Assembly: GCF_963676685.1 (NCBI RefSeq)
Contig: NC_092347.1
Location: 67,456,001 to 67,520,000 of the forward strand
Reading direction: 5' to 3'
Length of the DNA: 64,000 nucleotides
Origin: Mytilus edulis
Lineage: Eukaryota
A program made the position numbers and the translations under genes. Each line of letters opens with the position of its first letter. The first letter of the stretch is position 1. The notes beneath the pieces were generated by a model that was not told the origin of the DNA, did no database searches, and saw nothing but the letters and a program-made list of their open reading frames with translations. Shown here in pieces: positions 17,481 through 64,000 of this stretch.

Positions 17481-17819
17481 GGAAATGATACTTATGCGAT
17501 ACATATTCATCCAGTCATTGTATATATTAAGTCGTTAAAAGTTCGTTTGGTGTACTTGCAATTTTATTTCTAGAATTTGTTGATGCGTTTAACTGATAAC
17601 AGTGGACAGTGTTTTTTTAAGATGTAGACGCATGAAAACATAAACAGTACCACCTTGTAATAATAAATAAACATATTATCAAAACAAGACATAATCGGCA
17701 ACTGGACTAAATTATAGATACACATTTTTATGCGTTTCATTTTTATAAATTGATAAAAATAACATAAATAATAATTGTTAAAATATTTGTACAGAAATAG
17801 CAAACCAAATGAAATTCTT

Positions 17820-21919: not shown

Positions 21920-22420
21920 GGAGACTGCTGCTTCATGCTAGAAACATCTATAAAATATGCCCACGTATATCAAAAAATACAATAAAAAGCTATTATACAA
22001 TAAATATAAAACTTTATAAATTTCTTACTTCTAGAAAATCTAGAAATTGACAATGAGGGTCGGTTGAAAACAAGACTTTAAAACAAAAGAGATGATTTCA
22101 GCTTCCCAATTGTGACTTTTTGATTTTTGACAAGAGATCCAAATGGTGTAGTTGTAATCATCACTTCGTAAATATTACGGACGCCATCACGAGTTTGTTG
22201 ACCGTTATGGAATATTCGTTATACTAATGATATCGGATATTTTCGTCGTTACTACAATCCCATTCCCTTTTCACGAATGTGACCTACGAAATTATACTAT
22301 TTACCGGCTTTGTAACAATATGTGCAATACGACGGGTGCCATATGTGGAGCAGAATCTGATTCAACTTCCGGAGCACCTGAAATTACCCCTATATTTTGA
22401 TGGGGTCCGTTTTGTTTTTG
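21920..22420 (+). mobile_element. Penelope-like element 3' fragment
   Basis: Degenerate EIDNEGRLKTRL.KRDDFSFPIV and SSLRKYYGRHHEFVDRYGI, typical of the PLE RT C-terminus, followed by a GC-richer tail. Confidence 0.7.
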
Positions 22421-31231: not shown

Positions 31232-33699
31232 CTGAAATAGATTTCTTTAGAATATATAAAAAAAAATTATTAAATATGTTCAAATTGGAAATAACTAATG
31301 TGTCAATTCCATTAACTTTTTGAAATTTATGAAATTTAAGAGGGGGGTAATCAATTTCTTTACTGAGAAATCCAATTTTACGGTTTATACTCCGCATTAC
31401 ACAACTCTTGTGTAACGTTACAATATATTCTACTCCTACAAAGGCAGGTTTTTATGACTATGATCGTCATTAGAATCTCAAGATTAAATTGCTTATATTG
31501 TAAAGAATACGTTAAGCAATCATTTTAGTGCCTAAAAATATTTTGTGATGTAGACGACGTTGAGCTCAAAACGATCGCGTTGGATTTTGAAATCCAAACC
31601 AGGTAGCTCGGACATATTTTGACTTTGGGTAGTGACCACTTTTGTTTTAGGATTGAATATAACAATCACATTATAATGAGACTGAACAATATTTGTTTTG
31701 TTAAGATAAACTATTATTTTACCTGGCGTAGGTGTGAGTTAAATGTATTTCCGCATTTCTCTTCAAAAACTTGATTGATTAAATGTAATAAAATGTCTGA
31801 TTTGTAAGATTACTCTTTTTTCAACAAAATATGTTATCTAGATATAAGAAGATGTGATATGAGTGGTAATGAGACAACTCGTCATCCAATTAACAATGTG
31901 TGAATGAAAACACAGTTTAAATCAAAGTAAAGAACTCAACACGGAACCTTGGATCACACCGAAGAGAAATCTATGTGAGCCCCTAAATTGACTAGTGTAC
32001 AACCATTATAACGAGAAATCAACGGTCTAATCTATATAATAAACGAGATACGAGAAACACTAATGAACCACATCAACAAACGACAACTCCTGGACATCAG
32101 GTTCCTGACTTGGGACAGGTGCAAACAAATGCAGCGGGTTAAAATGTTTTAATAGGTACTAACCTCTACCCTTATCCGAACATAGTGAGCATCACAACAA
32201 ATTAAACACACTATAAAATATCAATTGAAATGGCTAACTCAATCAAAACAATATTGCAATAATAAACACAAACATGTTCTGTAATGGTATAATTTTTGGA
32301 TCTTTCATATGCGTATCTAAGTCAGGGGAAAGTTTTGGGTTCATGTCTACATAACTATTGACTTTATACAGAAAAATCTCTCTTCTCAAACTTTATTGTT
32401 TCACCAATAATTCATAGATAGAAAGTTAAATTAATCATTTCTTAAAACACGGCAAAAAGTGCGTTCAATTGAACCGTGGTATTGCAAACATCGAATTCCC
32501 TCACAAAATGTTATCACAAACTAACTAATTAAGAAAATAATAAATATCTCGATGGAAGTAACACAACTGTTTTAAGAAATATGAACAGGATTAGAGAATT
32601 TAACCTACAGAACACAAATTTTGAATTAAAAAGTATGGTGTATTAGTTCAGAATGAGTGAAATAATCAGATAGTTAAGAAGAATTTCGAGATATGGCCGG
32701 AAAAAAAACATCGACCTAAACATCCTATTTTAAAGTTGCCCTAATCCTTTTTAGAAATGGTAGATCTTTCGTTTCTTTGTGTGTGGTAATTCGAGATATA
32801 TTTTAGATCACTTTTGGTTAGAATGATAGCACTTTTAGGAGTTAAATTCCCTTAATTGTAAATTTCAAGTGTATTTGAACATAATCACTTCTTCAAATAC
32901 CAGAACAAAAATGGAAAACGAATGCTATATTTATACATTCGGGACATAAATTAATGTAAACTTGAGTAGGTTTCTTTTTGACATTTTTTCATTGAACTGC
33001 GCATATTAATAACATAGAGATTTAGTCGCATTCATCAGACTAAGGTAGCGACAGATGGTGTTTAAATTATCTCAAAGCATCTGTTTATTGTATTAAAGAA
33101 TTTTATTTGAAAGATTCAATCAGTTCTCGTTAACGTGGTTTACCAAATTGTGATTATTGCGGTTTATTCGACCTTAATAGTGTAAATGTATTATAGTAAA
33201 TATAGTAGCAATGATTGTCAAATAAAATATAAGAAATATTTTGGCTTTAGAAATGATACTGTAACTTATACAGTCAAACCTGTATTAAACAGTCCCTCAA
33301 GGGAAGTGTTAAAAGTGAACGTTCAAGTCAGCCGACCTTTGAAAAGAGGTATCACCTAATGTTGCTTCGACTTTCCCCGTGGATGGGTTCACGGCAAATA
33401 TTTTTGTGTTTTCCTTCGGGTGAGTTATAGTTCTTGTATCAGTGAAATAAAAAAGGTTGAATTTTCGCGTTTCAAGTTGGAAGAAACTTTTAAATTTGCT
33501 AATATTCGTGCAGAAATAAGTCTGTAATACTATGTTATTGAGAAAGTGAAAGAAGTAGAACCCAAGGAGTTCACAAATATACCTCCGATTGCGCGATCTC
33601 GCATGATATCTGGTTTTGATTGTGAATTTGCCTTAATGGTGCAAACTGAGATACCGGCGTTTTTATGATATAGAAATACAGCAAGCATTTACGAGAGAT

Positions 33700-40470: not shown

Positions 40471-42156
40471 TTAAAAAATCAGCTTATACAAAATTGCAGT
40501 TCCATTATAATTGGCGACCAGAAGAGTGTCATTTTCTCCGTCGATAAAAATAACATATGGCTGGAAGATTCCATCTCCTTTCCCCAGTATTCGTCTTCCT
40601 TTTTTCCCGTCGGGTGAAATGACGACTATACTGTTATTTCCACGACTTGCGACGTAAATATTTGAATGTTTATCAGTGGTCACACCACAGGCACTTTTCA
40701 AAATTGATTCATCTTTGAATTCCCACAGTTTCTCCCCTGTCAAGGAATAACACTTTACTGCGTTTCTGTGGGTATGATATATTTTATCCTTACATGATGT
40801 TACATAGTTCCAGTGTGCCACTGCTTTGTCATTAACCAAGAGATAATTATTTGATTTTAACAATTCCACGATACGGATACCATATAAGTACTCGCAGCAT
40901 AAAATTTGGTTGTAATGACGATTAATGCCACTGCACTTGCCGAATGTGTTGATGGTTTTGACAACTTTTTTGGATATAATATTGATGATCTGAATAACTT
41001 TCTCACCATGAAATGAAGCTGCCACGGTTAAGTCGTCGATATGTGTTACATCAATAGGATATTGTGTTGGTGTATCAATTACACTGTCCGGTTTTCCATC
41101 CTTTGTTAGAATGATCAATTGATGCTCGTAGCAGTTCACAAATATGAATTTACCTGACGGGGTCATTGAACAGCCAGTAATTTGCGAAGGAACGGTCATT
41201 TTCTGTTGTTGCGTTGGGTTGATATCAAAAATAGATCTTGGTGTAACAACTGGCATTCTAAGGAGTTGCGCTTGCTTATCTGTTTCATTCTTTAATACAA
41301 CTAATGACGATTTATTTTCTGTTGAAACTGAACAAAATTTTTGAATAGATAAAATTTTTGATAATTCGTCATGAACTTCAAGATTAATAAAAACTTGTTG
41401 GAGTCGTCCATCAACAGACAAAGACTGGAGATATTCCTCTTTCTTTTTTATTTCCACCTCAAGGATTTTAGCTCCTAAAAATGTCTGAAGATTTGATGCA
41501 TATTTCCTAATTGAACACATTTCATTCTTCAACTCACTCATATGTTTGTAGTTTTGGGTTACATTTGTAATGACAGTTTCTATTTGCCTGCTAATATCTT
41601 TTTTAGTAGCTTGCAATTCCTTAAATGACTGTATTTCTAGGAGGTCTAGGTGTTTATTTATTTTATCACGAATCTGTGTTATCTCGCTCGAAAACTTATG
41701 GTGCTGGTTCTGGATTGAAGTGAGGTTCTGTTTACGGTCATCGATGATTTGTTCTGCATTACTCATCACATCTTTAAGGCGCAATTCCATACTGTCAAAT
41801 AAAGACGATGTCCTTGACGTTGCTATGACTTCTTCTACCGATAACAGGCCAATGCAGTTTCTATGGTTAGATGAGATACATAACGGACAACATAGGTTTT
41901 CATGCTGAGGACAGTACATCTGGAACTTTCTATTATGATCAGAACAGTGTTGCTGTATACTGGATATTGAAGATGGAAGTTGTTTGTAGTTTTCAACGGG
42001 AATAACCTCGTGATTTCTAGACGATTTCAAAGCATTGTGGTAGTTCAGGCAGTTTGAACATAGGCCTTGTTCACATTCAGGACACCAATATTCAGCTTCA
42101 ATTGTCTTGTGTTGTATTTCACATACACCACATACTGTGCTACATGAGGTCGCCAT
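40471..42156 (-). CDS. RING-less TRIM-like protein (two B-boxes, coiled coil, C-terminal NHL-like beta-propeller), 561 aa, single coding exon
   Basis: ATG at 42156 just after a splice acceptor (tacag, 42168). B-box CGVC..WCPECEQGLCSNCLNYH..H; B-box CSDH..YCPQHENLCCPLCISSNHRNC; helical heptad region; NHL-like repeats (PIDVT, ACGVTTDKHSNIYVA, QPYVIFID...LLVAN). Confidence 0.92.
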   Translation of the reverse strand: MATSCSTVCGVCEIQHKTIEAEYWCPECEQGLCSNCLNYHNALKSSRNHEVIPVENYKQLPSSISSIQQHCSDHNRKFQMYCPQHENLCCPLCISSNHRNCIGLLSVEEVIATSRTSSLFDSMELRLKDVMSNAEQIIDDRKQNLTSIQNQHHKFSSEITQIRDKINKHLDLLEIQSFKELQATKKDISRQIETVITNVTQNYKHMSELKNEMCSIRKYASNLQTFLGAKILEVEIKKKEEYLQSLSVDGRLQQVFINLEVHDELSKILSIQKFCSVSTENKSSLVVLKNETDKQAQLLRMPVVTPRSIFDINPTQQQKMTVPSQITGCSMTPSGKFIFVNCYEHQLIILTKDGKPDSVIDTPTQYPIDVTHIDDLTVAASFHGEKVIQIINIISKKVVKTINTFGKCSGINRHYNQILCCEYLYGIRIVELLKSNNYLLVNDKAVAHWNYVTSCKDKIYHTHRNAVKCYSLTGEKLWEFKDESILKSACGVTTDKHSNIYVASRGNNSIVVISPDGKKGRRILGKGDGIFQPYVIFIDGENDTLLVANYNGTAILYKLIF

Positions 42157-42419
42157 TGTTTCTTTACCTGTATAATTCAAAGTAAATATTAAACTTTAAA
42201 AATTATCTTATTTCATAGGATTTGGATAAAATTAAAACAAATGCTGTCACTTTGACACATTCCCCATTTCATTTCTCAATTTTATTAAAGTATCAAATGA
42301 CTGAGTTGCCATTTGTTACTAAGCAATGTTTTATGTTAACAACCTGCTTACAGACATTTGTGAACAATACACCAAAACAGAATGAGACTAAACTTATCTA
42401 AACAGAAATATAAATGTAC

Positions 42420-44770: not shown

Positions 44771-46349
44771 TTACCTGTCTTTGTAATTTGTGTTTTTGAT
44801 ATATGTATTCTTCCTTTTTTTGCTTAAAAATAAAACATATGGAATGAAAAAAAATGTATTTTTATAAGTTCATTAAACTTGGAGCATGTGAATAATACCT
44901 ATGACATATGTGTAACCTGTTTTTTTTTTTCTCCAAAAATCAGGATTTATTTATTGGTTATCCTTTCTATCTGTTTTAATTCAAGTACCACTGAAGGGAC
45001 TTTATAAGCATAGTAACTAGATTTTTCATATGTAAATGATGTGTCTTCTGTGTATTGTAAATAGAAGAACCAACGTATGAGTCCAGGAATCAATACTCAA
45101 ACTGCACAACTCAATCCAAAATTATAGAGAAAGCCTGTGTGATACTGTTCATTCAACAGGCAATTTTTCTGCCATATTCAGGTTTTTGACATTGTGGTAA
45201 AATTGTCACCCTTCTTGGTGTTTCACTACCAATTGAGGCATTTTTTCAAAGTGATAGACGAACGACAACTGTTCTTTTTTTCTAAATAATTATTATTCAT
45301 TTTTTTTATAAGTGGCTCATTTACTTATCGCCTTGAAAAGCTTCATATCTGAGTTACAGCTGATATTTGATAATATCTTTTACTTTATTTTTCTTAACCC
45401 TTAAAAATTATATATTGTATAGATTGTTCAGTTTACTTTTCCAGTTTTGATGAGAACTTATGTATGTCAAATAAAACCCATATATATTTTAAGACACAGC
45501 TGAATGGTTCGAAAATGTGCAGGCTATGATAGGCAATACCTGCAAATTATATTTGTAGTGTGGTACACAACGGCTGTTTAACATTTTCCATAAATTATAT
45601 CATTATAGAATACTTACCAATCGTGTATGTGTTCCCCTTATCCATATTAAACAATATAACAGACAAATGTAATTAACTGATATCTAACATAACATTACAA
45701 CAAAAAGCAAGCTTTAAATGTCATTTTATACAATAATATTCTCTATTTTCATAACTGATTTCTAATTTCGTTGAAAGTTTTTATTTTGCAACAAGTTTTG
45801 CCAATATTCTGAATAAGACGTAATAATGAATAAGTAAATGGACGTCCACGATTTTAGCAATGTGCAATGAATAATGAGTTACTTGATTAAAGTTATTTAT
45901 CTTGTTTGTGGTTACTACAATGGAACGACACCATGAAAACAAGTGGACGTCACTTAAATTTCAGAAATCAGCGATTAAAGATCATCATTATACAGATGCC
46001 ACTTGCACATCTTGTACTTGCAGCCCATTTGTGGGTTTTTAAAGGTCTTTCTGTGATGAAAATATGGCGAATAGCAACGCTTACACATTTGTCCAAAAAA
46101 ATGCAAAATACTTGTTCATTGTATTGGTATTCATTGTCTTTTCTTTTCTATTTACTTCAAATTTACCACCTTCCACTGAATTGGAGGTTATAAGCATCTC
46201 TCGGTTTCGGTTTTACGTTTACCATTTTGCGTTAAACAATGTTATATTCATGTTGAAGGTCAACACATATATATAATAATGACCATTCTGATCCTCCTGA
46301 TAATTAAAGTTTTATGTGGCCTAGGACTAATAATTGATGTGGCAATACT

Positions 46350-46800
46350 TTGATGACTTTTTATGGTTTGCAATGGTTTGTTTAAAAGTATAACTAAGCT
46401 GCGATGCTGCAACCTAAAAATACCAATTGAAACAGGAAGATGGTATGGAATTTCTAGAGATGAAGGCAGAGTCATCTCTGGTCCTTGTAAATTGGAAATG
46501 AGTTTCACTACTTATTTGAGTGCCAATCTGATCTTGTTAAAAATATCAGAAAAAATATATTTCAGAATAATACCGCATTAATCCATGTGTTGAGAAAATG
46601 AAGGGACTGCTTTTCATTTTGCAATATCACAGTTCTTAAAAATTTATCATTGTTTATTAAGAAATTAGTTAAGATATTGTAACTTATATGATTATATGTT
46701 AACATTGTTTTGTAGTAACCATAATAATGACTATGTATTTTGCCTCTTGTTGCACATGTAAATATGTGTCTGAGTGTTTCCAAATAAAGAATATTGTTAT
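46350..46800 (+). mobile_element. 3' end of a non-LTR retrotransposon
   Basis: KLRCCNLKIPIETGRWYGISRDE...GNEFHYLFEC C-terminal motif, followed by a 3' UTR with aataaa. Confidence 0.7.
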
Positions 46801-49800
46801 TATTGTTAATGTTTTTATGTTTAATATTCCAAACAAACACCAATAATAACTTTACCCACTTGGTTCTTTCATGTTATGTTACTTTAATTATGAATACATA
46901 TGTAATCATTATATTGTTGTGCCTTAAACTTCTTCATTGATGGCTTGACCGCAGAATAATCGCATGGTGAATTAAAAACTGCGTTCCTTGGGTACTGATG
47001 ACAAACTGTATACACACTCTTGTGCTATGATTTTTGAAACAATAACATCTTAGAAACAGTAATAGCCTTTGTAATTCATGAGACCAATATATCTGGTTTT
47101 TGGTGCTTTATCAAGTAATAACCTGCAAAGTTTACCAATACACTCTACTTGTTAACATTTATGAGATTGTTATTAGTTGTAAAAGTAACGTATACCGAAC
47201 ACATAAAATAAACAATTAATTACTTATATTAATGTAAGTAGCAGTATTGTATATGCTTTGAAAAGATAGAGAAATGGTCAAACCTTCAGAACATTACAAT
47301 TCTATATCATGTTATTCTGATAATAAAAGGATGTGTAGGTAAGACTCACTAAATGAAGACACAAAGAATTGCTTTACTCTGTTATTGGAAGTATATTGTG
47401 TGCTAAAGAACACCTTTATATTTCATATTTTAGATATTCCAAGTTCAAACTTAAAGAGAGGAATGCACATACGGCCAACGTTATCACAACGTTTTGGTTG
47501 GATACGCGCAAAGCTGCTTTACAACATGGGAACGTTTGTACTGGTAAAAAGTTTGACAAGAAGTATTATTCATAGATTTCATATGAAAACGTTATGAGTA
47601 TTATTAACGCTTCTCCCTAAAAACACGTTTTTAAAGTCTGGCGATGAACAAAGAAGGTAATTGTCAACTACAAAATACAAGAGAGCACATGTTCTTTCAG
47701 TGTAATTGTTTGTTTCAACTAAATAGTTTAGAGACGAATATAACTCTGGAATAACAAATTTTAAATTCCATAAATTCCATAAATTAAGCATAACTATGTG
47801 TTAGTAGGTGTGTAAATACATAAAAGAAACATTGTACAAATAGTATTATTGTGCTTAAACAATAAATTTGATTTCTTTTAACTCACCAAAGAGCGTGCGC
47901 AAAAGTACGTAATATATACTGTATACAACAACAAAAGAAGGAGATTTTTTCGAAACAGTCATAGATCATGGCTGTCTATGTGATTTTTATGAAATGGGGA
48001 AAAACTCGACCATTCGGCTCTCTCAAGAAATGTTTTTTCATTCCTTTGCAACAAAAATGGAAGATATCGTGCATACGGACAGTGTATTCCTAACAAGTGT
48101 TTTCTATTGTCAGGCTCACAACCAAGTCAGGAATATGGCAGTTGTTTTTCACTCATTCTGTTGGTTGACGACATTTAGCTTTTCAGTTTTCAAAGACTAC
48201 CCATTTTGGAATATATATTGGAGTTCGGTATTTATATGTGGTTTTTTTCTTCACTAAATATCCCTTCATGTGAAAGTAGTTTTGTTGTGATGTTACAACA
48301 ACTGTTTATTCGCATGTAGTTTTATAAATATGTGTGTTAATAGAAACACACTGATGCACTTTTGGTAGAAATGGTTAAAATTCCAACTATATTGAAGACA
48401 GAAAGAAGGGTTAAGTTAGTACTATTGATAATTACGTTATTATTCAGGATTTGTATGGAAATAATATAGACATTATTGTAATGTTTGACAAGAATATTTT
48501 TTTCTAATATTACCCTATTATTAAGGTCATTTATGGTTAGACCGGAAATTTAAAAAAACAACAAATTGTATGATATCAGAATATTGTGATTTTTCAGATC
48601 TATACAAGTATGAATTGGGAAAGTGAAAGGCACATTGGTCCAATAACATAGCGCAATATACATTAACACGTTTTATTGATGACATAAGTACACTGTCAAT
48701 TTTGCAATTTATTTTATCTTTCTTTAGTCTTTAATATTATTACTAGCATAGATCAATAACAAAAGAGGATTATCAAGGTGTATAATCTGGTAAAATCTGG
48801 TATCTATGATGAGATTAGTTTGTAAATTCCTTTTGCAAAATAACTGAACAAGTCAATTCCAGAAATATATTTACGTGGTCGTTCTCATTGTGCAATGCAC
48901 ACTATGCCTACCGACACCTCCACCTTGGTTAATCTTGATTGAAGTATACTTTTGCTCTGTCATTCGTCCTGTTTATTTATCGTGTTCTTAAAGTCGTAAG
49001 AAACCTCAAATTAAACAAACAAATGCATATGTTTTTTTATAACTCAATGGATAGTTTTCATTATAAAACTTATGTACATATACTTTTTTCTAAAGAAAAT
49101 TCTTTAATTTGTTCATATTTAGAAGGAGTTTACTTTATTTTAATTGCTTCCAGGAAGCAATTCCCCGACATATTTTCCGTATGCAAAGTGACCTCAGTGT
49201 GACCCATCTCGTAAAAATCCGGTGATCGCAATACGCATAGATGTCCTTAAAATAAACTATTATCTGATTGTACATGTTAAACACGTGCTCAATATCCATG
49301 CTTTTTTGTTGATTGTTGACACACAGGTGACAATCGTTAAACTTTGGCTTCAAAACACGAACTTTAATTACCTGCCAAATTTTCACAACAACACTGACCT
49401 TTTAACAAAAAAAATTGACGATTATACGAAATTTATGCGAAAAAAATGATAAAATCGTGCACAGAAGACTAAGTTTATGATGTTTGTATGCATTGGTTCA
49501 AGAATTGGAATAACATTTTTTTCACCGGTGACTCGTTTCATTTGTTTCCATTTACAAAGGTATTTTAACTTAAATTAGACAATCTCTTGTATTTTACAAA
49601 GGTTAATAAAATCCAATTAACCTGTATTGCAGTAATAGTATGAGTTGATTTTATGTTGTTTTCTTCAATTAAAACACCATGTAATCAACTCTTTTTAAAA
49701 GAAACACAAGCCTTGTCAGGCAATTCAAGAAGAGAAATAACTCTTTTAATAGGCTATTGGATAGGTGAAAATTGAACTGTACTTAAATACATTTTGAATC

Positions 49801-49971
49801 AAAATGTACGCAATATGTTTTAAAGTTTCTAAAAGAAGCCCCATAAACTGCAAAAACCTATATACTCTCGTTTAGAAAAATGTTCAGTTGAAAAGAAACG
49901 AGTTTCTAAGACGCAATAACTGTTCAATACAACATATCAAACATATCATCGACTTAAATTCAACAAAAGCA

Positions 49972-50418
49972 TAGAATGAAATTCAAAACAGTGTGGCTGT
50001 GGATATTGATTGACACATTAAATCCATCCATTGACTGGGACAATTTAGGTGAACGTTTGTATGTAACGACCATTGCTCACTGTGTACTTTTTAAAGACAC
50101 TTAAACTATGGGGTCACCAAAGGTTCTCAACACCTTAATAAAGTAATTCGAAAAAAATAATCAGAAATAACACGATGTTTTGATTTATATCAATTATATA
50201 AATCAAAACGTAAAGGTTATTTCTGATTAATTTTTCGAATTATTTTATAATTAAAGGCGTTAAAAAACCTTGGTGACCCCACAGTTTAAATGTTTATCGT
50301 AGGTACGTCGTGAACAGTGGTCGTTACAGACAAACGTTCACGTAAATTGTCCCAGTCAATGGATGAATTTAATGTGTCAATCAATGGCCACAGCCACACA
50401 GTTTTGAATTTCATTCTA
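49972..50418. mobile_element. Fully palindromic (fold-back) MITE with TAG...CTA ends (Academ-like termini)
   Basis: tagaatgaaattcaaaac...gttttgaatttcattcta; ~215-bp arms meeting near 50193. Confidence 0.8.
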
Positions 50419-51829
50419 ATTTCAAAAACAAGAGCCGTACAAGAAAATATCAGAACAAAAAAAAAACAAAAAAAAAAGTAAGGTGAAAAACCCCAAAAAA
50501 AACAATAGGGAATTAATACCAATATTGTTATCGAAATCCCAACTTTAAAAATATGTCGACAAGGTTAAAAAGAATTGAAATGAACTTAAATATGTCAAAT
50601 GTTGTACTGGTTGAATAGAAATTTGATTCAAGGGAATTCACTAGGTTATGAATTTACCAAAGATTGTCAGGTTTCTTCTAGTAGTTCTAGTTAAAGTTTT
50701 CCTGAAAAACATTTACCTTTTGGAAAGAAAACACCCAACAGGAAGAACAATTCAATGTTATGCGAATGATCGAATCACAAAGAAAATAAGATTAATTATT
50801 CAAAAAAGATCCATTTTCTAAATTTTTATATGTTATTCTTATTTAGAATCCTCAAAGGTTGCACATTTTAGTTAATAAAAGATCTAATTGATTATTTTTC
50901 CTATTTTAGATCGTTACATTTGTAAAATTATATCAATATCTCAATATTTTGGTTCCTAAAGCTCCTTCACTTTTAGTGAGAATTATTCTTCTAACTATTT
51001 TAATTCAAGTGCCACTTATGTCACGAAATGTAGACTGAATTTGCGGCTAGTGTACTTAATTATAAGTCTTCTATCTATAATGGTAGTGTTTGAGAGTTTA
51101 AAATGAGAGAAAAAAGTATTTTAATCTGATTTTTGTCTAGCGCCACTTTTGTTTTTAGAAATTTTTGCTATTGTTTCATGCTAAATGTCAGTCGTAGAAG
51201 ATTATTATCGAAGTCAACAAAACAATTTAGAAACATCTGAACTTAACATTTTGACGAAACACTTCAAGATGGACGCATAAAGATTTCAACTTTATACTCG
51301 TTTATAAGGATCATTGCAAATTTCTCAGATATTGCATTTAGAACCAAATTTCTCGATGGCATTCACTTTATTTTCGACCAAGATTGGAACCAAGAGTATC
51401 AAGAAAATAATTAAGTAAGTATTCGGTTATTGCAATAATAAATGCATTTTACTAATGGTATGCGCCACAAATTACTGATATAAAATTGATCACGACGCTT
51501 AATGAAATCCGGATAATAATAAAAAAAAAAAGGCGCAAACAGTTTGCACAAAGAACGACAATATGGTATATGGAGTGATGATGATTAGTTGCTCATACTC
51601 AGCGACATTAAATTATTTTAGATATTACTTCAGTATTGTTTGGGACTATTAAGTCGTTGGTGCTTTACACAAATGATTTTGAATGTATGAACTAATCAAG
51701 AATACCCGTCTCTTGATTTTGTACGCCAGATGTGCATTTTGTCTTCATATAAATGTTTAGTGGAAAGCGAACTAAAACAGACGGAAAGCAAAATCAATAC
51801 GAAGTAAAGCAGTCTGCATTTGTGCTCAA

Positions 51830-54370
51830 TTTGATGAGGTATTGTAGTTAGCGTGTTTACATATTTTCTGAAATCGATATTGACACAGAATTCAAAGGAA
51901 GTCATTATATCAAGTACGTAAATAGATACAAAAGTCCAAACAAGCAAATTTTTTTTCAGTTTAGATTCTTATTAAGAAAAAAAACACGTGAGGCTTATAC
52001 ATATCAATTTCAGCACAATCAGATTTCTGTCAACAAATTTGGAGACCATGATAAACTAATCATTTTGGGTATAAGGTAAAGGGTAATACAACACGTAGAA
52101 AAGTTTAAGGATTGCATTTATTTATTTTCTTATATTTCGCAAAGTGCAAGAAATAAACCACGTGGGGTGGATTTGTATTAACTTTGTCACAGTCAGTTTT
52201 TCTATCATCAACTCAAGAGATCATATCAAACAAGGTATTTATAAACGTGACTGAATAATTCCTTATATGAGTATTCCTAGAATAGAAAACTCTTTATATT
52301 GTCGTTATGTATTTTTATTAACATGTGCATTAATAATGCATAACTGAAATGTTCGACTAGTACTAAAGGGAACTTACGAGAAAGCAATGAAACGTACTTA
52401 TATTCTTTAGATCAAATGACCAAGTTGGCATATACTTGCACGAATGACTAAATAATTCATTAATTTTTAGATTTAATTATTAGCAGTTCTGTGAGTTGTT
52501 TTGTCACATCCGCTTTCTTTCCGACTGATCTTAAAAAGTGGGTAGACAAATATATGGAGGAATAGAAAATAAATGTATATTCATCTGTTGCATTAGAGGT
52601 CATATCATGTTGTTAGATCATCTATATTTGTTTTTGTAATTCAGCATTCGTTAACGTATGTCTATCTATGAAATCATGGATCGGTATAAATCGAAGTCGA
52701 AAGTATTCTACCAAAAGAAACAAAAAGGCAGAAAATGAAGAGTGAGAGAAAGAATTTTACGAGAAACCAGAAGACTAAATCTAGATGATCCGGAAGGGTG
52801 AGCATTTATGCTTCACCAGTGTTAGTTCCTAGTTGCTCCTGATACATCAGAGTTCATCTCATGTTGTAAGATCATCTATATTTTTAAAACAAATTGTAAT
52901 TCAGCATTCGTTAACGTTTGTCTATCTATGAAATCAAGGATCAGTATAAATTAAAGTCGAAAATATTCTACCAAAAGAAAAAAAGGCAGAAAATGAAGAG
53001 TGAGAGAAAGAATTTTACGAGAAATCAGAAGACTAAATCCAGATGCTACGGAAGGGTGAGCATTTATGCTGCACCAGTGGTTAGATTCTAGTTTCTCAAG
53101 TCAAGGTGGTTATGTGACATTGAACGTTTAACCGCATGATTATACCAATACGATCTATCCATGCTATCGTTAATATGACCTTTCGCACATAATAGAATTT
53201 CATCAAATTTATTCTAGGGGAGAGCAAGGTCTTCACTTAATACAAAAAGTATTTTTTTCATTTCATGCTCTATGCTTCTGAATTACCTTTGCGGAAGAAC
53301 GATCGTTCGTTAAAACGCTTCATCAACTAGAGCTGCTACTGAACTCCATAAGGTTCTATCTATGACATTATTTTCTTATATTACAAACTAAACTGAACAA
53401 TTAACCTTATGGTTTCATATTTGCATCTGGTATACGTTAACCTTCAATTATTACTGTTCTTCTGACAGGTGCATCCACAATCGCTGAGGTTCATTCAATC
53501 AGGCCTTTGAAGGATTAAAGTTACTGATTGATATAGAAATATTATCTTCCTTGAAGACAATAGCCTAGTTCCTTCTTTTCTTGTTTCTACTTTGATTTAA
53601 CTCTGAATAAAATCACCAGTCAGGATTACTACAAAATGTTCAATAGATCGTCCGAGAGAATACTGAATAACAATTTGAATGACTCTATTGCGAGAGAAAG
53701 TGACAGAAATGTCTAAGATTTCTTTGTATAAAAGCATGTCAAATATTGGTTTATATTCTTGAACCGGATGAAAATGCACAATTTATAGACCACTGAATCA
53801 CTGTAACAGGATCTATATTGTTTATTTCTTTGCATCGATTCCAATCACTGAATTATTTGTCTGGATTACTATATGAACTGTACATTGTAACGAATAGCCG
53901 GATTTCCTTTTTAGATAAGGACATAAGGACAGATGGCACAAACTAATACCGATTTGGACTAGCAAAATAGATTCATGATTTAGATCTTCTTTCATACATT
54001 ACCTATATCATCAAAAGCATTATGGTATAAACAAGAGCAAAGTCTTTAATTGTGTCATCGTTTAATTATGCTTTAGTGTTATATCGCATACTTGTGTTCA
54101 GTTTTGAATAATGGATACGATCAAAATCTTATATCTTTATAACGAGGACTGTAGCTATAGTCTTTATCAGTTTCTACTTATTTTTACTGGTCATCTTTGA
54201 TTTGTTTTTAATATTTAATTCACCAGATCACCTGTTCTATTTTGTAGTGAATTTGCATTCGTCTTCCGTTTTGCATGGGATAGTTAGCTTTGGATATTAA
54301 CGGATCCACTGGATCGCTGTCCCAGCTCAACAAGTGAATTTTGTATAGAAGGCTGGACTTAAAATGATAT
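51830..54370 (+). pseudogene. Decayed TLR-like pseudogene, copy 1B
   Basis: Paralogue of 15200-17480; FAHNRISS (~53182), FLEDNSL, IHDLDLL..INKSK, IHWIAVPAQQVNF (~54304, TIR box3-like). Confidence 0.45.
52595..53095. repeat. Local tandem duplication (~245-bp unit x2) in copy B only
   Basis: tgtaattcagcattcgttaacgt...ggaagggtgagcatttatgc occurs at ~52635 and ~52895. Confidence 0.8.
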
Positions 54371-55538
54371 CATATACCCTGTTATATGCTACTTTTACGA
54401 TACAGGTTCGTTCTGTCATTGTATATTTTAGTCGTTAAAATTTTGTTGGTGTACTTGCAGTGTTCTTTCTAGAATTTGTTGACAATGGACTGTGATTTCG
54501 GGATGTAAAAGCAGGGTTTTCTAGAAATCACACCAGTCACACCCTGTGGTCTCAATTCATTGTTATTTGTTAAATAATAGAAACCTGAAAGAATCGCACG
54601 AACTCCAAAACGAAGAGAGACGGGGTGTGTCGACATGATTTAAGTCTACTGCAGTTAATTTATTACGCGTAATGCAAACTAGTTTTTCCTTACTGGTGCA
54701 TAATACAGGACAACTAGATTTGGAATTTCCTCCACACACCCCATTCCCCCCAATAGTTATGTCCTTACTTATCTTAGTAATTTTATGTGTTTTCGGATGA
54801 TCATTAAAGTACCACTGGACCATGCCAAATATTTTTAATACGACGTACAATGACACATGTCGTAAAATACAGGTTCAGTCATATTATGATTATTGAAACA
54901 TTTATCTACATGAGTTGTCTCCCTTAGTTGCCTTTTAAATTAGAATTTTAAAGTTCTGGACGAAAATTAAAGAACCACTTCACCAATTTTCTACAAATAT
55001 GAAGACGATGCCATACACGGTCGCGAAACACGTGACTTGCTTGTGATCAGTTTCACGGGAAAATGGCGTCTGTCTGAATAAACAAGTTCGCTTGGAGGCA
55101 AATTGAACGTAAGTATTTACATATCATCGTATTCATACTATAGGACCCCCCTCATCATATGCAGCGTTTTGTTCCGAATATTTTGATGCCCATTAAGTTA
55201 TATTTCACTGTTGGTTTCATAGAGAACATTCACAGAATATTTCAGATCTGCCGAAGATTGATCAGGATTGTGTACACGATATGTCCGTAAAATCACTATA
55301 AATCCATTTATGTATCTTATTTTCGCCACTCGTGTACAGAAACTTGCCCACATTTACTTATTCATTCATACAAACTAGCGTCAGTGTATATTTTTGACAG
55401 TTTTGTCAGCTGAACGCAATAATATTTTTTTTTTCAAAAAATGATCAGTATCCACGGTATGAACATTATATGATCAGTTCCACGGTATGAATCTGAAAAT
55501 TATAGATCATTTCCCATAACTTTATATTTAGGTTTTAA

Positions 55539-55816
55539 ATGGATGCTGAGAAGGCAGAAAAGCTGTGTAAAATTTGTGGAAAGTCATTCCGGAGTATTTC
55601 AGCAGTGTATGATCACTCACCCGTCACCTCAAGATTCACGAGGAACACCCTGTAAAATTTAAATGTACAGTATGTGGTTTAGAGTTTAAGAAAGCACATG
55701 ATTGTGGTGATCACGAGGCTAGTCACAGGGGTGACAAACAGCATAGGTGCACATGTGGAAAGGCATACATCCACCACACAAACCTTTACAGACATAAGAG
55801 AAAATGTAATCATTGA
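55539..55816 (+). pseudogene. C2H2 zinc-finger gene, internally deleted and frameshifted at 55616
   Basis: MDAEKAEKLCKICGKSFRSISAVYDH / LTRHLKIHEEHPVKFKCTVCGLEFKKAHDCGDHEASHRGDKQHRCTCGKAYIHHTNLYRHKRKCNH*. Upstream donor (aac|gtaagt, ~55108), acceptor (55531) and AATAAA at ~55900. Confidence 0.75.
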
Positions 55817-55914
55817 CAATCAGGATTCATCTTGACTTTATTATTTATTTTACGTTTTGTACTTTGATCTCAAAGATGAGATACATACTGGTTTTGACAA
55901 ATAAAGATTTATTT

Positions 55915-56423
55915 CTATGAAAAATATTTATTCAATGCCCATTTTTTAACAGTTGGTAGAAGTTTGGCCTGGTTGCATCTAGCTTTTTCCCAACGAATTC
56001 CAAGTTCCCCTTTACATAGAGCATTTCTGTCAGTTGAAATTGTTGCCTCTCGCTTTCGTCCATTCAACCGTTTCCTCCCTGCAGAGTCGAATGTATGATT
56101 TCTGAAAATAAAGGAAAATACAAAGTGTACAAATTTATTCTACACTGGGGAAAACCTGGAGACCGTAATTCGATTCATGGTTAGCCGTAGGGCCATATGC
56201 ATATTAGAAATTGCAGTGAGGATGAAAATATTTTTCATAGACGAAAATCTTAGCACAAAATGTATCTTGCGTTACATGTGGAAACTACCATTGTCACATA
56301 TCAGTACCGAAACGTTCATTATACAAGTGCAAATTAACTAAATCTACCTGAATGCTATATCCAAAGGCAGTTCATTTACCAAACCTAGGCAAACCCTGCA
56401 GTTCACATGGTGAGTATCAATAT
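55915..56423 (-). other. Last two coding exons (56423-56348, 56101-55915) of an unrecognised gene convergent with the zinc-finger gene
   Basis: Canonical AG/GT sites with an in-frame join: IDTHHVNCRVCLGLVNELPLDIAF-R-NHTFDSAGRKRLNGRKREATISTDRNALCKGELGIRWEKARCNQAKLLPTVKKWALNKYFS*. Confidence 0.5.
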
Positions 56424-56500
56424 CTGTAAATGTCTCTTATGTTATTTTCAAAAATTTAGTGACAGTAATATGATAAGAATTCCATGAAATGAAAATTTAC

Positions 56501-56658
56501 CTGTGTCTTTTGATATTGGCTTTACTGAAAAAAACTTTCCTACAACACTTGTATGGCCCCTTCTTGGCATGCCTCCTTTCGTGATCATACACTGCTGAAA
56601 TACTCCGGAATGACTTTCCACAAATTTTACACAGCTTTTCTGCCTTCTCAGCATCCAT
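56501..56658 (-). CDS. First coding exon of the C2H2 zinc-finger gene in the right arm (partial)
   Basis: MDAEKAEKLCKICGKSFRSISAVYDHERRHAKKGPYKCCRKVFFSKANIKRH followed by a phase-2 donor (AG|GTAAAT). Confidence 0.65.
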
Positions 56659-58509
56659 TTAAAACCTAAATATAAAGTTATGGGAAATGATCTATAACTT
56701 TCAGATTCATACCGTGGAACTGATCATATAATGTTCATACCGTGGATACTGATCATTTTTTGAAAAAAAAATATTATTGCGTTCAGCTGACAAAACTGTC
56801 AAAAATATACACTGACGCTAAGTAAATGTGGGCAAGTTTCTGTACACGATTGGCGAAAATAAGATACATAAATGGATGTATAGTGATTTTACGGACATAT
56901 CGTGTACACAATCCTGATCAATCTTCGGCAGATCTGAAATATTCTGTGAATGTTCTCTATGAAACCAACAGTGAAATATAACTTAATGGGCATCAAAATA
57001 TTCGGAACAAAACGCTGCATATGATGAGGGGGGTCCTATAGTATGAATACGATGATATGTAAATACTTACGTTCAAAATTTGCCTCCAAGCGAACTTGTT
57101 TATTCAGACAGGCGCCATTTTTCCGTGAAACTGATCACAAGCAAGTCACGTGTTTCGCGACCGTGGATTATAAACAACATGTCAAATTCGATTTTGTTAA
57201 TTTTTACAATTGATGGTTAAGAGTATTGCCTTCATGTTTCTTCAAAAATACATTTTTTTTCCTAATTCCAAATAGTACTTTTTAAGTATGACTCGACAAC
57301 ACTTTGAACACAAAACATGGATTATGAAATAAATTCAAGTTCTATTTCGATATATACCGTTAAAACGATGTTCCCATTAGTTGCCTAACAATTTAAGATT
57401 GAAAGTACTTTTGATAAAAACTTTTAGATTTAAACACAATGTACGAAACAAATAATACAGGTCACATTCAATTTTATATTTATAAAAACTTGGATGATGT
57501 TAAAAAATCCTACAGTTTATTATTAAAACAGGCAAAGAGGAATCGCACGGGTTTTTTTTTAATAATTTAGAGAATACAGGAGTGTCGACAAGGCAAGAAT
57601 ATCCAGATATGCATACATCAACCGTCACACGATTACAAAGAAACGATTATCAAGTTATAATGTCAGAAGTGAGTTCAAAAATTGAATTAGTGTATCGATA
57701 ATTTCCAACAAGAAGTTCTTGTCATATCTTTGTTGGAGGAATCGTATTGTGTTGAAAATAAACCTCAGTAAAATGGCAATCCAAATAATTGACCCTAGCG
57801 AGAGCATATGTATATAGCAACAAAAAAACACCATTAGTTTGATAATATGATATATTTCTTTACAAGAATGGAAAGAAGGTGACAATACGAATTTTCAAAC
57901 GATTTCATTGTCATAGATGGCACCATTATGAAGAAGTGTGTGTAGATTTGAAGAAGTAATTCATGTGTATGTTTTATACTTCATTTAAAGTTCTTGGTAA
58001 TATTTCATTTGTTAGTATTTTAAAGCTGTAGACACTAGTAACCATTTTAACTGGTGAATTGGTCATTTTAAACTGAACAACTCTTAAATTCCTGAATTTA
58101 TCACAATGAAAAATGGTAAGATATTTTTCAGGTCTTCATAACATGTTCAGTGTATCGCGATCGATTAAGTACAAATCAGTTTTAGTTTAGGTTATTTAGA
58201 AATTATGCCAAGCGTTAAATCAAGTATTATCAAGTTCATTTTAGTACATTTCAGTTTATCAATATAATTGTTGGCTAGTACTCCTCATTGAATTAAAATA
58301 GTATGAGGTTTACTTCCCTAAGATAAGCATAGAAATCAAAATTTAAAAAAAGGAAAATAATAATGAAAAATAATAAATAAACAAATTATCATAAAGAGAC
58401 ATAATCGGCAACTGGTCTAGATTATAGATACACATTTTTATGCGTTGCATTTTGATAAATTGATAAAAATAACATAAAATATTTGTATAGAAATAGCAAA
58501 CCAAATGAA

Positions 58510-60400
58510 GTTCTTACAGTTATCCTTTAATGGTTACGCACATATGAGATATTGATGACTGTAAACAAGAGTAGCTTATTCGTAGATTAGAATGGTGAAA
58601 CATCCAGATGACTTTCAAAAATATCCACTATGATTTCGCACCATTGGTCTTCGACTTGATATTTATTTAAATGTCCGATTGAAGTAATGTTAGTAAATAT
58701 TTTGAAGGTATTTTTACGATACGATTCATAATTCTTACTTTAAAAGAGTGGAAAATCTATCGCCAATGACCAGTAATCAAACAGTCACCTAGAGTTCATC
58801 ACCTAAATCCGCGGTAATTTAAAAGCAAAAAAGTGCTGAGTTATGTGTTTATCACACATCCACGACTCGGAAATTAATTTTTATCTTGACACTCAATTTC
58901 TTATGAATTTCATTAAATCAGGCAGAAGATACATGGATATCAAAGAATCAACTACATTCAAGAAAAAATGAAAGGTCCAGTTTTAGGACAGTTGAAAAAA
59001 AATACGATGTTAAAATTGACAACAAATAAAGGCAACAGTAGTATATATACCGAGGGAAACACATTAAATACAAGAAAATGACGACACAACATAAAGATGT
59101 AACACATACAGAAACGGACTTAGCATTAGACAAAATCCGATGCGAATAACAAATATTACAAGAGTGATAATTGGTTTATCGATATGGCGGTTAAAAACAA
59201 CATCGTAATAACAAATATTTTGATATCTAAATAATTTCAAAGAAACTGTCAAGAAACAGCGTCATCCAGAAATAATTTTGAGATTGGCGAAGTAGAAGAA
59301 ATTAATTACAAAACGTATATTTTTCTGACGTATTCAAAAGTATTGCTTATTCTTTATTATATGGCAAAACCGGAGTCCATGTTTGTCAACGTTATGTTTT
59401 AATGACACAAAGAAAGTGTATATGCAGAGAGGATTTTGTATGTACGTTCTTGGAAGGAAACACCCAACCACAAAACAATCGATGAATTCAAATACACTCA
59501 TACATAGCAGTTTTTTTTAAAAAGTGAAATTTTACTATAGTTTTAACTGAATTTTGCTTCAACAATGGATCGATACCTCTACCGGTGGACTGAGACATTC
59601 AATTCCAAAGATATTCTGTCGATAAATTTAGTAAAACATCTAAAACAAGTAGACCTTAGATCGTTCAAGCCTATTCTAATAAGGCCCCTTTTTGTCATTC
59701 TGCATTTCAAATATTTAATCACTTGTTTGAATTGTTAGCAATCTTAAAGGAGGTAACAAATCAAAATCGCCATTGACGTATACCAAGTCATTTGAATTAA
59801 CAACATGGTTAATATGCGTGTTATTATGTTTCTCTGGTACTTTTAATGATTTAGTATAGTTCCATGACATGTCATTATTGCATAATGTTATTTATCGTAA
59901 TACAAATAGTAATATAGGTGAACAACAGAAACAGTAAGCAACCAGAACCAAACAAGGTAAATAAACCCATAAACAATTAAAATCAAAGTCATTAATTCGC
60001 ATTTATTTGCTTTTATGTTTCTTATTTTTAAATTGTCTCCTTTTAGTTAGAGTACTTTGTATCTTCTTGTTATCCTATGCCAGTAAACACAGATAGATAC
60101 GTGTATTTAATTTCTATATTATAAAGTCGGAAATTTTCTATGAACAACAGCATTAACCTAACCTCACATACACATAATCATATTTTTAACATATTTTATT
60201 AAGTTCTAGGACGGTCCATTTATGACTTTTGAACAGCGGTATACTCCTGTTGTCTTTATTTATTGCAAGTAATGCATCAGATACAATTTCTGTAACTGTG
60301 TTCATGTGTTCAAGGTGACAGAGGTGCTTAATTAAGCGAAGTACGTCTGTATTTCCTAGTTTGTAACTTTTCCCGGCTTCTTACATTTTATAAGAGATAC
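58510..60400 (+). pseudogene. Decayed TLR-like pseudogene, copy 2B (3' part lost)
   Basis: Paralogue of 17820-19870; GPVFRTVEK/GQLKK remnant at ~58975; homology ends near the MITE at 60432. Confidence 0.4.
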
Positions 60401-60431
60401 CATGGGTAAATAGAGTAGGACAGAAACTATA

Positions 60432-61481
60432 AAGGAGTAGGTCCGGTAATGGCCGATTATGGACTCCAATTTCAAGTTCATCTGACGAAAGATTGTGAAT
60501 ACTTTTTAAACACCTAAGTGTCTATTTCAGTTGATTCAATTAGTTTATGTTAAAGATTTTTCTTACTGATTTAGGCATTAAAATCGCTCCGCTTAAATAT
60601 GAAAAATCTATCAAAAATGCCAAAAAAATGTCACTTTTCAGATGTTTTTTTTTCAAAAAATTCAGCCACTGTCAATTTAGACTGAAACCGTCAAAAATTT
60701 AACTAAAATGCTAAAATTGTGAAGATTTCAGTAAGGAGAAGGTCCGGTAAGACCCCTTTTTGGCCCCAAAATATAGCAGTTTTACCAAATTGTTAAAATG
60801 TAAACTTTTAGTTATTTATTTGACAGTAGAATGCTTCTGCTACATAAATATGGGCTGTTTTTGACAATACAATGCACATATATCGAGTACTAGCACCACA
60901 AAGTCATGCTAAATTACTGAAATCTTCACAATTCTATCGTTTTAGTTAAATTTTAGACGGTTTTCGCTTAAAACGAAAGTGGCCGCATTCGTGTTCGTCC
61001 TTAATATTTGAATGAGAGTTGTATTTTATGATAATACATAACATATATAAAGGTTTAGGATGAACACGGATGCGGCCACTTTCATTTTTACAAAAACCAT
61101 CTAAAAAGTGACATTTTTTGGTAGATTTTTCATTTTGAGCTTGAATCGGATCGTTTTTAATGACTAAATCAGTTAAAATCTTTCTCAAAAACTAACTGAA
61201 TCAAATGAAATAGACACTTAAGTGTTTAAAAAGAGGTCAAAATCTTTCGTCAGATGAACCTGAAATTTGAGGCCAAAATCGGTCCCTACCGGACCTACTC
61301 CAAAAACAAGAGTTAGTGATGCTAGTACCCGATATATGTGTATTGTATTGTCAATAACAGCCAATATTTATGTAGCAAGTGCATTCTACTTTTCAATAAA
61401 TAACTAACAGTTTGCATTTTAAGAATTTTGTAAAACTGGTATAATTTGGGGTCAAAAGGGATCTTACTGAACCTATTCCTT
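60432..61481. mobile_element. Kolobok-like MITE with a second copy of the same family nested in opposite orientation (60734-61301)
   Basis: TIR core aggagtaggtccggtaa at 60432 and 60734, with reverse complements ending at 61301 and 61481; the inner sequence is the reverse complement of the outer halves. Confidence 0.75.
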
Positions 61482-63144
61482 TTTATATATTGTATTATAG
61501 AATAAAATCAGAAAAACAACATAACCCATTTATAAAAATGTATACATAAACTGTGCACACGAAAATAAAGTGTTAATTTATATGTAAAGTATTTAATTCA
61601 GGAATAAACGGATTGTATATCAATTGCTGTTTAGTGTTAACGATCACAATGGTTTGCAATTTATTCGAAGAATATTAATACTAGCATTGTGTCTGAAGTG
61701 AATAAGGGAAGTTGCGTTGAACCAAAACTTAAACTTGAATGCAGTTGCACATTTGGAACAACCTACATAATGTATACCATAAAACCATCGCTCACTACAC
61801 ATGTTTAAACACCTCACAAGTACATCAGCATGAAACAATTTTGTGCAGAGATTTTAGAAATCTTAACGACATTTAATTTTACATTTTTGCTTACTGTTTT
61901 TCTTCCTATGGGTTACTTGTAACAAGGAGCAGAAATACCATAAAAGAAAAAACTTTACAGTTATTCCTATAATGATCGAGGTTATGCTGTTTGTCCCTCA
62001 AACATGATGTCAGATAATAAATTAAAAAGCACACATTTAACTTTTCGTCGCCTCAATTAAACATAGCACGTGCCAACAAAGCTTATACATTTTTCATGTG
62101 TTAAAGGATGTCATTAAAAGATCTTATAAAATTAAAATAAAAGGTTTTTTTTCTTATTTTATCAACGATAGCTTTCGAACAGTTGTTATACATCATCTCA
62201 ATACTGAAGCACTGGCTTCTATCCTGATAGTTCACCGATGGTGGTATCGATAGTGTTAGAAAATGCACTCACACCTCCATGTCAAATATTCATATCTTTA
62301 AAATAGTCTTCTTATGTGTTCACTACTTGCCTGTTTCAGTTCTTGGCATATTGTAGAGAGCCACTTCTGCTGGGGAAGAACATATGCATATGTCTGCGTG
62401 ATTTGTCTTTTTTATTTTCAGCCATGGCGTTGTCAGTTTATTTTCGATTTATGAGTTTGACCGTCCCTCTGGTATCTTTCGTCCTTCTTTTTTGACATCT
62501 TATTGCCAACAGGGGATTATTTAACTTGCTTTATGGTTTAACATCGGTTCTTCCTTGTAAATAATATACTATTATTTAGATAATTAAAAAATAGGTTAAA
62601 CTATACATCAAAATACAGTAACCAATAAAAATTAATGTTGTAACCTGACACACATCGTAATAGTTCATTGTATTTTAATGATAAATCTTCGTTCAACTAG
62701 TTTTGTGTTCATCTACTGGGATTTATGGTAACACGTACAGTCAATACGACCTCCAGTTTAAGAAGGAAGCAGATGCTGAAAAACAAGATTTTGTCTTCGT
62801 TTCCATTAACTCAAAGAAGACAATTTTTTTTCCAAAACCCCTAAAGGAAACAAAACTAATACTGCTAATAAAGTTATCTAAAGATTAAGTTATGGTGGAA
62901 TAAAAAAGTGTTTCAAATATGTTTAAACGACAACTCTTCTCAAACACTTAAGCAACAACAGGTAAATAAAAAGGTATAGATAATTTATCTAGATTTTCTT
63001 TCTTAAACAATCAAATAGCCTCGCAACACTGATAAAACTAAAATAAAGATAGAAATACAGTAGTACAAAGTAGAAATTAACAATAGAGGCTCACAGGAAC
63101 TTGAACTGCTTATTCTGCAAACTATTTGGTAAAAGAACGCAATA

Positions 63145-64000
63145 AAGCTCGTAACAAGGCCAGACATACGGGGGTGGACATTATTATTTATTATACAAAG
63201 AAAAAAAAAGGAATGTAGAAATACTATTAAATTAGCACAGCAACAATATTGGGAAACCTTTTGCAGTGGCTTGAATAATAATAATAATATAGGGCAAGTA
63301 TGGAATACAATTAAGAGACTGATGGGTAAAACAATTAATTCTCTAATTATGCCTACTTTACCTTGCCTGATTTACAAAAATAAAATATATGAATCTACTA
63401 AAGAAAAGGCTAATATATTAGCTGAAGCATTTGCCAATGTCTGTGGTTCAATGAGCTATTCAGAAGCATTTATATTACATAAAGAACATATTGAGTCTTT
63501 AGAAGCTGAAAACTTGAAACAATATTTTTCTGAAAACTCCCAAAGTTATAATGAACCATTTACCCTTAATGAATTGCATGTTGCTATTGCTGATACATCA
63601 GGTACATCTCCTGGTAAAGATAAGGTTACCTATAGTATGTTTAAAAACTTCAGTGATTAATCACTTGGTGTACATCATTTATTATATAACAGAATTTGGT
63701 TCTCACAAGATATTCCTCTGGCTTGGAAACATTCAATAATAATTCCAAGCCTTAAACAGGGGAAAGATTCAAGTGACCCACATGCATATAGACAAATAGC
63801 TTTAACATCTAATCTAAAAAATTATGGACAATATGATAAATAACAGACTGAGGTGGTACCTTGAAAAAAATTATATTTACTCACCTTATCAGAGTGGATT
63901 TCGTCAAAAAAGAAGTACGATAGAACAAATAATTAGACTTGATAACGATATACAAAAATCATTTTTGGAAAAATATTTAGTTGGAGTTTTCATTGACTTC
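63145..64000 (+). mobile_element. Decayed non-LTR retrotransposon RT fragment (I/Nimb/Jockey-like), running off the window
   Basis: EKANILAEAFA, NEPFTLNEL, SPGKDKVTYSMFK, YRQIALTS, QSGFRQKRST, VGVFIDF, with stops and frameshifts. Confidence 0.8.

Follow-up and report, generated by a model that had tools for sequence, protein, structure and literature searches.

Probable rearranged copy of a two-gene transposon in Mytilus edulis, with a predicted P-like transposase that carries an exonuclease domain

The stretch of DNA analysed here, referred to as the window, comprises 64,000 nucleotides of Mytilus edulis (assembly GCF_963676685.1, contig NC_092347.1, positions 67,456,001 to 67,520,000 of the forward strand). 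Between window positions 55016 and 57165 lies an inverted-repeat element, which an earlier note, made from the letters alone, had described as a fold-back transposon whose arms carry the 5' exons of a C2H2 zinc-finger gene. Very probably, this element is a rearranged copy, devoid of the transposase, of a young cut-and-paste transposon of 7.1 kb in which, judging from the sequence and from a structural model, a C2H2 gene faces a predicted P-like transposase with a built-in exonuclease domain. Taken by itself, the window copy is an unremarkable rearranged derivative. The real finding is the family behind it, whose combination of a putative P-like, exonuclease-bearing enzyme with a zinc-finger gene occurs widely among marine invertebrates. 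Both the P-like fold and the exon structure of the transposon are predictions. The parts of the copy are the following, the family's terminal inverted repeat being abbreviated as TIR:

55016..57165, no strand: the whole non-autonomous copy, made of parent bases 1-601 and 1178-2001, then 746-1 inverted
55016..55497, + strand: left family TIR with the CACGG end, 482 bp in the parent
55498..55616, + strand: zinc-finger-end sequence that lengthens the left arm, with acceptor 55531, ATG 55539 and a truncated first coding exon
55616..55617, + strand: junction 1, a deletion of about 577 bp within the C2H2 gene, with a frameshift and 1 base in common
55617..55905, + strand: 3' part of the C2H2 gene, with the last fingers, stop 55816 and AATAAA 55900
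55928..56101, - strand: last transposase exon, its stop (55928) overlapped by AATAAA, tail-to-tail with the C2H2 gene
56348..56438, - strand: remnant of the penultimate transposase exon, from the spliced-tail comparison
56436..56438, no strand: junction 2, between parent base 2001 and inverted parent base 746, with CTT as a 3-bp microhomology
56439..56699, - strand: second zinc-finger end, with an acceptor, ATG 56658, an intact first coding exon to 56501 and the start of intron 2
56700..57165, - strand: right family TIR with the CCGTG end and a private 17-bp deletion

The two arms (55016-55616 and 56581-57165) are 95.7% alike over 606 alignment columns, with 6 mismatches and 3 gaps totalling 20 nt (E=0). 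Both start with CACGG inward from their ends, giving the CACGG..CCGTG termini of the near-identical arms of about 600 bp already described in the earlier note. Each arm contains a short first exon with a predicted splice donor (55109 in the left, 57070 in the right), an intron with a predicted acceptor, and the ATG of MDAEKAEKLCKICGKSF, which opens the predicted coding exon with MDAEKAEK at 55539 on the + strand and at 56658 on the - strand. The left C2H2 frame ends soon past 55616, and the remaining fingers and the stop lie in another frame. The frame-breaking junction was read correctly, but the TCAC microhomology proposed for it was not, since both TCAC words are retained and only 1 base is common. 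The finger that follows in the right arm had been taken for a different one; it is finger two of the same C2H2 gene, whose first coding exon is intact there. The last exons of a second gene do end tail-to-tail with the first, as had been seen, but that gene is not an unrelated one: the exons are the final two of the transposase gene of the family. The window copy has lost the transposase end, holds the zinc-finger end twice and lacks a target-site duplication (flanks CCATA and GATTA). In a hypothetical read-through RNA, one of the sources of long dsRNA proposed in the earlier note, 580 of the 601 left-arm bases would pair, as expected of any such inverted repeat and without bearing on whether the RNA exists. 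The fraction of sequence words present in six RNA or RNA-guessed runs was 0.08-0.23.

A search of the genome sequence (1.37 Gb), proposed in the earlier note as a way to the parents and the target duplication, returned 94 matches to the element. Exact terminal 30-mers occurred 25 times (13 forward and 12 reverse ends), which amounts to 12 copies with both ends, that of the window among them, and a single solo end. An exact 5-bp target duplication flanks all 11 other two-ended copies, with a chance of a match of 0.002 per site. The longest copy is the intact parent (L031:966-8103; C6:51264965-51272102), which has CACGG ends, a length of 7,138 bp and TIRs of 482 bp that are 99.4% alike. From one end of the parent runs a gene for a predicted 144-aa C2H2 protein. 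The opposite end supplies an open frame of 1,443 codons, which together with two small exons gives a spliced model of 1,529 aa. Relatives that are unspliced have C-termini matching the tail of this model (best E 2e-21). The two genes are convergent and end tail-to-tail. The parent and its dispersed copies bear out the proposal that a two-gene convergent DNA transposon gave rise to the window copy as a young, non-autonomous derivative with one end duplicated.

It had also been suggested that the family has genuinely genic TIRs. This holds in so far as the 482-bp TIR contains a predicted non-coding exon 1, its donor and most of intron 1, which by their position in the TIR are predicted to be common to both genes; the left TIR of the window copy contains these and a predicted promoter. 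It fails in that the family TIR has no coding sequence, which lies inside the arms in the window copy only. Repeated motifs occur near parent bases 428-476, within the TIR. Simple internal deletions account for 9 of the 12 copies (nine loci, L032-L040, representing five independent deletions). All nine keep the C2H2 gene region and have lost the transposase, and the C2H2 frame is open in six of them. A solo 31-bp terminus (L100:372-402; G000:C5:40676671) lies inside another repeat without a matching duplication and is possibly an excision scar.

A Mytilus edulis protein matches the finger exon with 100% identity, and part of a M. galloprovincialis model is 99% identical to the start of the transposase. 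In public Mytilus models, exons of the element are fused to host genes: a 'KRAB' protein includes the finger exon, and a COG8 gene model ends in the N-terminus of the element's transposase (proteins P0180 and P0198 are the two fused models). Element exons have already leaked into public host-gene models.

With regard to the origin of the window copy, one substitution is common to both of its arms and occurs in no other arm covering that site, and within the TIR the arms differ by 4 substitutions and 3 indels. This indicates that one lineage supplied both arms, some time ago, which counts against an assembly fold-back. Were the fold-back an assembly artefact, or had a host zinc-finger gene simply been duplicated in inverted orientation, this would agree with the missing target duplication, with internal junctions left unconfirmed among the contigs listed and with the name 'KRAB' given to a finger exon in a public annotation. 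Such an origin is nevertheless scarcely credible, given that the arms, with 6 substitutions and 3 indels between them, end precisely at transposon termini and that the finger gene belongs to a dispersed element. The single-copy host gene that the earlier note had considered was not seen, the sequence being multi-copy. In contigs from two other studies, the left flank is followed by 27-28 bases of the element; this is under the 31-base bar and gives only a hint against an artefact.

Somewhat favoured is an origin in which a sister copy would have inserted inverted beside the original, followed by a microhomology deletion that removed both transposase ends and the intervening DNA. It is preferred because it yields the unmatched flanks and the two zinc-finger ends in one step. 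The shared private substitution would suit an extension of the TIR in place, within the same element, its own left end serving as the source for gap repair or conversion, and with the duplication lost by a separate flanking deletion. Galileo copies lengthen their TIRs with recruited internal sequence by such a 'two recombinant TIR' route (PMC3573991). Extension in place is possible but rather doubtful, as the second event must strip the duplication exactly at the terminus, yet both termini are intact to the base. No reciprocal copy of the rearrangement was found in the census of family ends. Inversion by recombination with another copy was also considered and rejected: no copy has the window's flanks or two transposase ends, and each of the other two-ended copies has a duplication of its own.

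The second gene of the parent had been suspected to encode the transposase, and a search by fold had been proposed. A predicted model spanning transposase residues 230-1425 was obtained, with a predicted local distance difference test (pLDDT) of 80.8 and a predicted template modelling score (pTM) of 0.69. Foldseek matched it to LHK and lambda exonucleases and to the P transposase (E 3e-5 to 5e-4). In structural alignment, the predicted model was closest to the P transposase 6p5a (Z 29.3, root-mean-square deviation 3.4 Å over 369 residues), followed by LHK/lambda exonuclease (Z 15.7; 3.4 Å, 180 residues), HzTransib (Z 11.6; 5.9 Å, 362), RAG1 (Z 10.3; 5.6 Å, 357) and Hermes (Z 9.4; 6.4 Å, 275). 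The suspicion is upheld by this predicted P-like fold with its D/D/E triad. In the Atlas, residues 1200-1430 lie nearest to clusters of P-type GTP-binding domains (score 0.96, with the family on 27% of members), and residues 200-900 nearest to an unnamed YqaJ cluster of 1,399 aa (score 0.92). Among 31 aligned relatives, Pfam detected YqaJ in 16 and the N-terminal P-type RNase H domain in 14; among 30 further-ranging proteins, 3 of them shared with the 31, the numbers were 18 for YqaJ and 3 for the P-type domain. No THAP domain was matched by Pfam in the parent or in either set of relatives, an upstream exon of which could escape detection in some. In the parent, only about 235 nt separate the TIR from the transposase ATG.

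Conservation was assessed in 85 aligned proteins of at least 1,000 aa, counting the rows ungapped at each site. The triad consists of D333 (82 of 82 rows), D847 (98% of 84) and E1386 (97% of 74), and the DxxH motif (D1221xxH1224) is conserved within the 97-100% range. The nuclease residues D623, E640 and K642 are conserved at 98-99%. The nuclease (residues ~500-720) and a long helical hairpin fall between the first aspartate and the rest of the RNase H strands. The YqaJ domain is intact and lies between the first two catalytic aspartates, as does a coiled coil; its PD-(D/E)xK site is present with the QxxxxWxxxR and SPDG..ExKCP motifs (3syy, E 5e-7). A second insertion (residues 1045-1215, pLDDT 91) had no Foldseek match at E<=0.001 and a best structural Z of 5.1, with SAP/Rho-N-like rows at Z 3.1-3.6, which is background level.

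The duplications and the triad point to cut-and-paste transposition by the DDE core, which, with high probability, would nick the transferred strand and integrate with a 5-bp stagger. Conservation of the nuclease is as strict as that of the triad, which suggests that the nuclease is likely active and needed, and its location within the catalytic fold suggests that it acts on the non-transferred strand. The PD-(D/E)xK domain might handle the non-transferred 5' strand, cutting or trimming it at excision, by analogy with what TnsA does for TnsB in Tn7, a proposal whose chances are a little below even.

Alternatively, the exonuclease could be an accessory without a role in excision, resecting the broken donor site, whereupon sister-chromatid repair would copy the element back, raise the copy number and yield deletion derivatives. 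Lambda-type exonucleases generate 3' tails for recombination, simple internal deletions make up 9 of the 12 copies, and that of the window is rearranged. The same nuclease family is borne as an accessory by ISL2EU and KolobokE (PMC4482050, PMC9587614). This alternative is held to be unlikely, although worth keeping in mind, since transposons that lack such a domain also commonly give rise to deletion derivatives, and since a position within the split RNase H fold suits coupling to cleavage. Concerning the other gene, chances are even that the C2H2 protein would bind the ends in place of THAP or regulate the twin TIR promoters. The retention of the C2H2 region by the deletion copies fits a replacement of THAP, and equally a cis requirement near that end.

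A 200-aa probe gave 48 matches in the genome, from which 20 with long frames were taken, 19 were examined with extensions and 16 were delimited. These 16 elements represent about 13 sister families, with about 25-41% protein identity and lengths of 8.8-16.2 kb. Fourteen start with CAC, one with CAA and one with CAG. Target duplications measure 5 bp in 10 of the 16 and 6 bp in two, and are missing in four; the targets are AT-rich (19% GC over 21 sites). C2H2 fingers lie on the opposite strand in all 16, with open frames in the 13 families covered. The last finger of the sister-family C2H2 genes often has a YRSS/WRSS-like helix, a resemblance across families that hints at a common DNA target. 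Despite the P-like enzyme, two sister families (L057:863, L058:909, L055:807) start with CACAGTG, the V(D)J signal heptamer. Element ends were checked in the M. edulis genome only. In a representative protein library, 2,071 proteins were found at E<=0.001 and 354 at 1e-30. Named relatives belong to Mya, Dreissena, Ruditapes, Mercenaria, Pinctada, Mytilus, Owenia and Branchiostoma; another, whose label assigns it to a bacterial bin, probably stems from host DNA. The clade is diverse in one genome, where 14 families were seen, and has protein relatives across several phyla, with other bivalves, an annelid and lancelet among them.

The convergent gene pair is reminiscent of ProtoRAG and the CACGG ends of Chapaev, and the family could be a Transib/RAG-like or Chapaev (CMC) element, a reading that is highly unlikely. 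CAC termini and 5-bp duplications, both found in the mussel family, are hallmarks of Transib (PMC1131882), and CACAGTG is the heptamer of the recombination signal sequence. However, the fold is far nearer to P (Z 29.3, as against 11.6 for Transib and 10.3 for RAG1, whose core is not the nearest fold), and the DxxH motif typifies the hAT/P/MuDR/Kolobok/Dada group (PMC9587614). In addition, the AT-rich targets differ from the GC-rich preference of Transib (PMC1131882). The partner gene, moreover, is of the C2H2 type and not RAG2-like. Chapaev/CMC, which the CACGG ends had suggested, was set aside because of the duplication length (5 bp) and the fold. Chapaev/CMC duplications measure 3-4 bp. A CMC-type transposase was absent from the Pfam and fold lists for the mussel family, an absence that does not exclude one.

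Several points weigh against the interpretation of the window copy and its family given here. The sister loci are the 20 of 48 matches chosen for long open frames, and the boundary search favoured CAC..GTG pairs, the inverted repeats being found independently by BLAST. Transposase structures of Kolobok, Dada and CMC are absent from the fold list, so the fold comparison does not cover them. The Pfam match of the parent to P-type RNase H is under the curated cut-off (19.3 versus 24.6 bits, E 0.0025), and sequence and profile searches of solved structures never recovered the P transposase, finding the exonuclease alone. Neither internal junction of the window copy was confirmed among the contigs listed, and its empty site was not recovered. 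The window contains a tandem segmental duplication (11000-25000 and 45000-63200, 75-93% alike, about 36-40 kb apart), and of the paralogues that serve as proxies for the empty site, the tandem one at 11-25 kb is without the entire 54482-58369 interval and a second spans the right side only.

Elsewhere in the window, two older fold-back repeats unrelated to the element (49972-50418 and 60434-61481) are 75-87% complementary. A 574-codon frame lies at 40474-42195 on the - strand, its start being presumably B-box/TRIM-like. Endonuclease- and reverse-transcriptase-like frames at 6054-9836 (-) are taken to be a broken non-LTR (long terminal repeat) retroelement, and exons at 24533-31451 (-) presumably belong to an immunoglobulin-domain membrane protein.

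The earlier note could not assign the element to a described family, and no match was found among the families in the papers searched. Likewise, no published description of a P-like transposase with YqaJ and a C2H2 partner was found in the literature; Repbase, Dfam and most subscription papers lay outside the search, so that a catalogue entry may exist. Neither P nor Transib families figure in the curated library of a bivalve survey (PMC10294476). By published account, it is not known how P-type transposases cut the non-transferred strand (PMC7776569), and a young, apparently intact relative with a nuclease domain in the same fold offers a direct test of second-strand cutting. Non-autonomous elements are classed by terminus and duplication rules (PMC4455052). 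The mussel family departs from the working rule by which CAC ends together with 5-bp duplications denote Transib, and non-autonomous copies could therefore be misfiled.

Among known systems, the P superfamily (Drosophila P element, 1360, Galileo, THAP9; structure 6p5a) resembles the mussel family in the predicted split RNase H fold, the DxxH motif, the helical insertion similar to the GTP-binding domain, the D/D/E residues, the introns and the internal-deletion derivatives. P-element ends are CA..TG, as in the mussel family. The differences lie in the 5-bp duplications, as opposed to 7-9 bp, in a transposase of about 1,530 aa with a coiled coil, YqaJ and a second large insertion, in which no THAP was found, and in the separate convergent C2H2 gene. 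The superfamily is recognized by a target duplication of 7-8 bp (up to 9), a D/D/E triad and DxxH (PMC3698922), and P transposases have GTP-binding residues, depend on GTP and cleave the ends with a 17-nt stagger (PMC7776569). The mussel element, as modelled, would work like a P element yet stands outside P membership; it is not filed there because of its duplication length and the lack of a detected N-terminal THAP domain (PMC3698922, PMC7776569).

Galileo is likewise a P-type element with long TIRs, and its extended-TIR (two recombinant TIR, 2RT) and chimeric copies include non-autonomous ones that duplicate internal sequence of one end; the chimeric copies also miss matching duplications (PMC3573991). 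The mussel copy differs in having recruited the start of a second gene and in arms that come from one lineage and not from two subfamilies. KolobokE (PMC9587614) and ISL2EU (PMC4482050) are DDE transposons that also possess a lambda-exonuclease-like (YqaJ) nuclease. Unlike the mussel family, KolobokE has TTAA duplications, RR..YY ends and a nuclease downstream of the DDE domain (PMC9587614), and ISL2EU has YqaJ in a separate open reading frame, a Harbinger-type transposase with THAP, AT duplications and GG ends (PMC4482050).

The likeness to Tn7 is a functional analogy only, as Tn7 is bacterial, its nuclease belongs to an endonuclease rather than an exonuclease family, and the DDE lineage is unrelated. 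In Tn7, TnsA and TnsB set a PD-(D/E)xK nuclease beside a DDE enzyme, and the duplications are 5 bp long. It is conceivable, if only tentatively, that the mussel family represents a superfamily-level animal lineage not yet described. Such a lineage would unite a P-type DDE enzyme without THAP, end recognition by a separate C2H2 protein expressed from a mirror-image TIR promoter, Transib/RSS-like CACAGTG ends, 5-bp duplications and a phage-type 5'-3' exonuclease placed in the RNase H fold for the second strand, and would thus be a single-chain eukaryotic counterpart of the two-nuclease design of Tn7.

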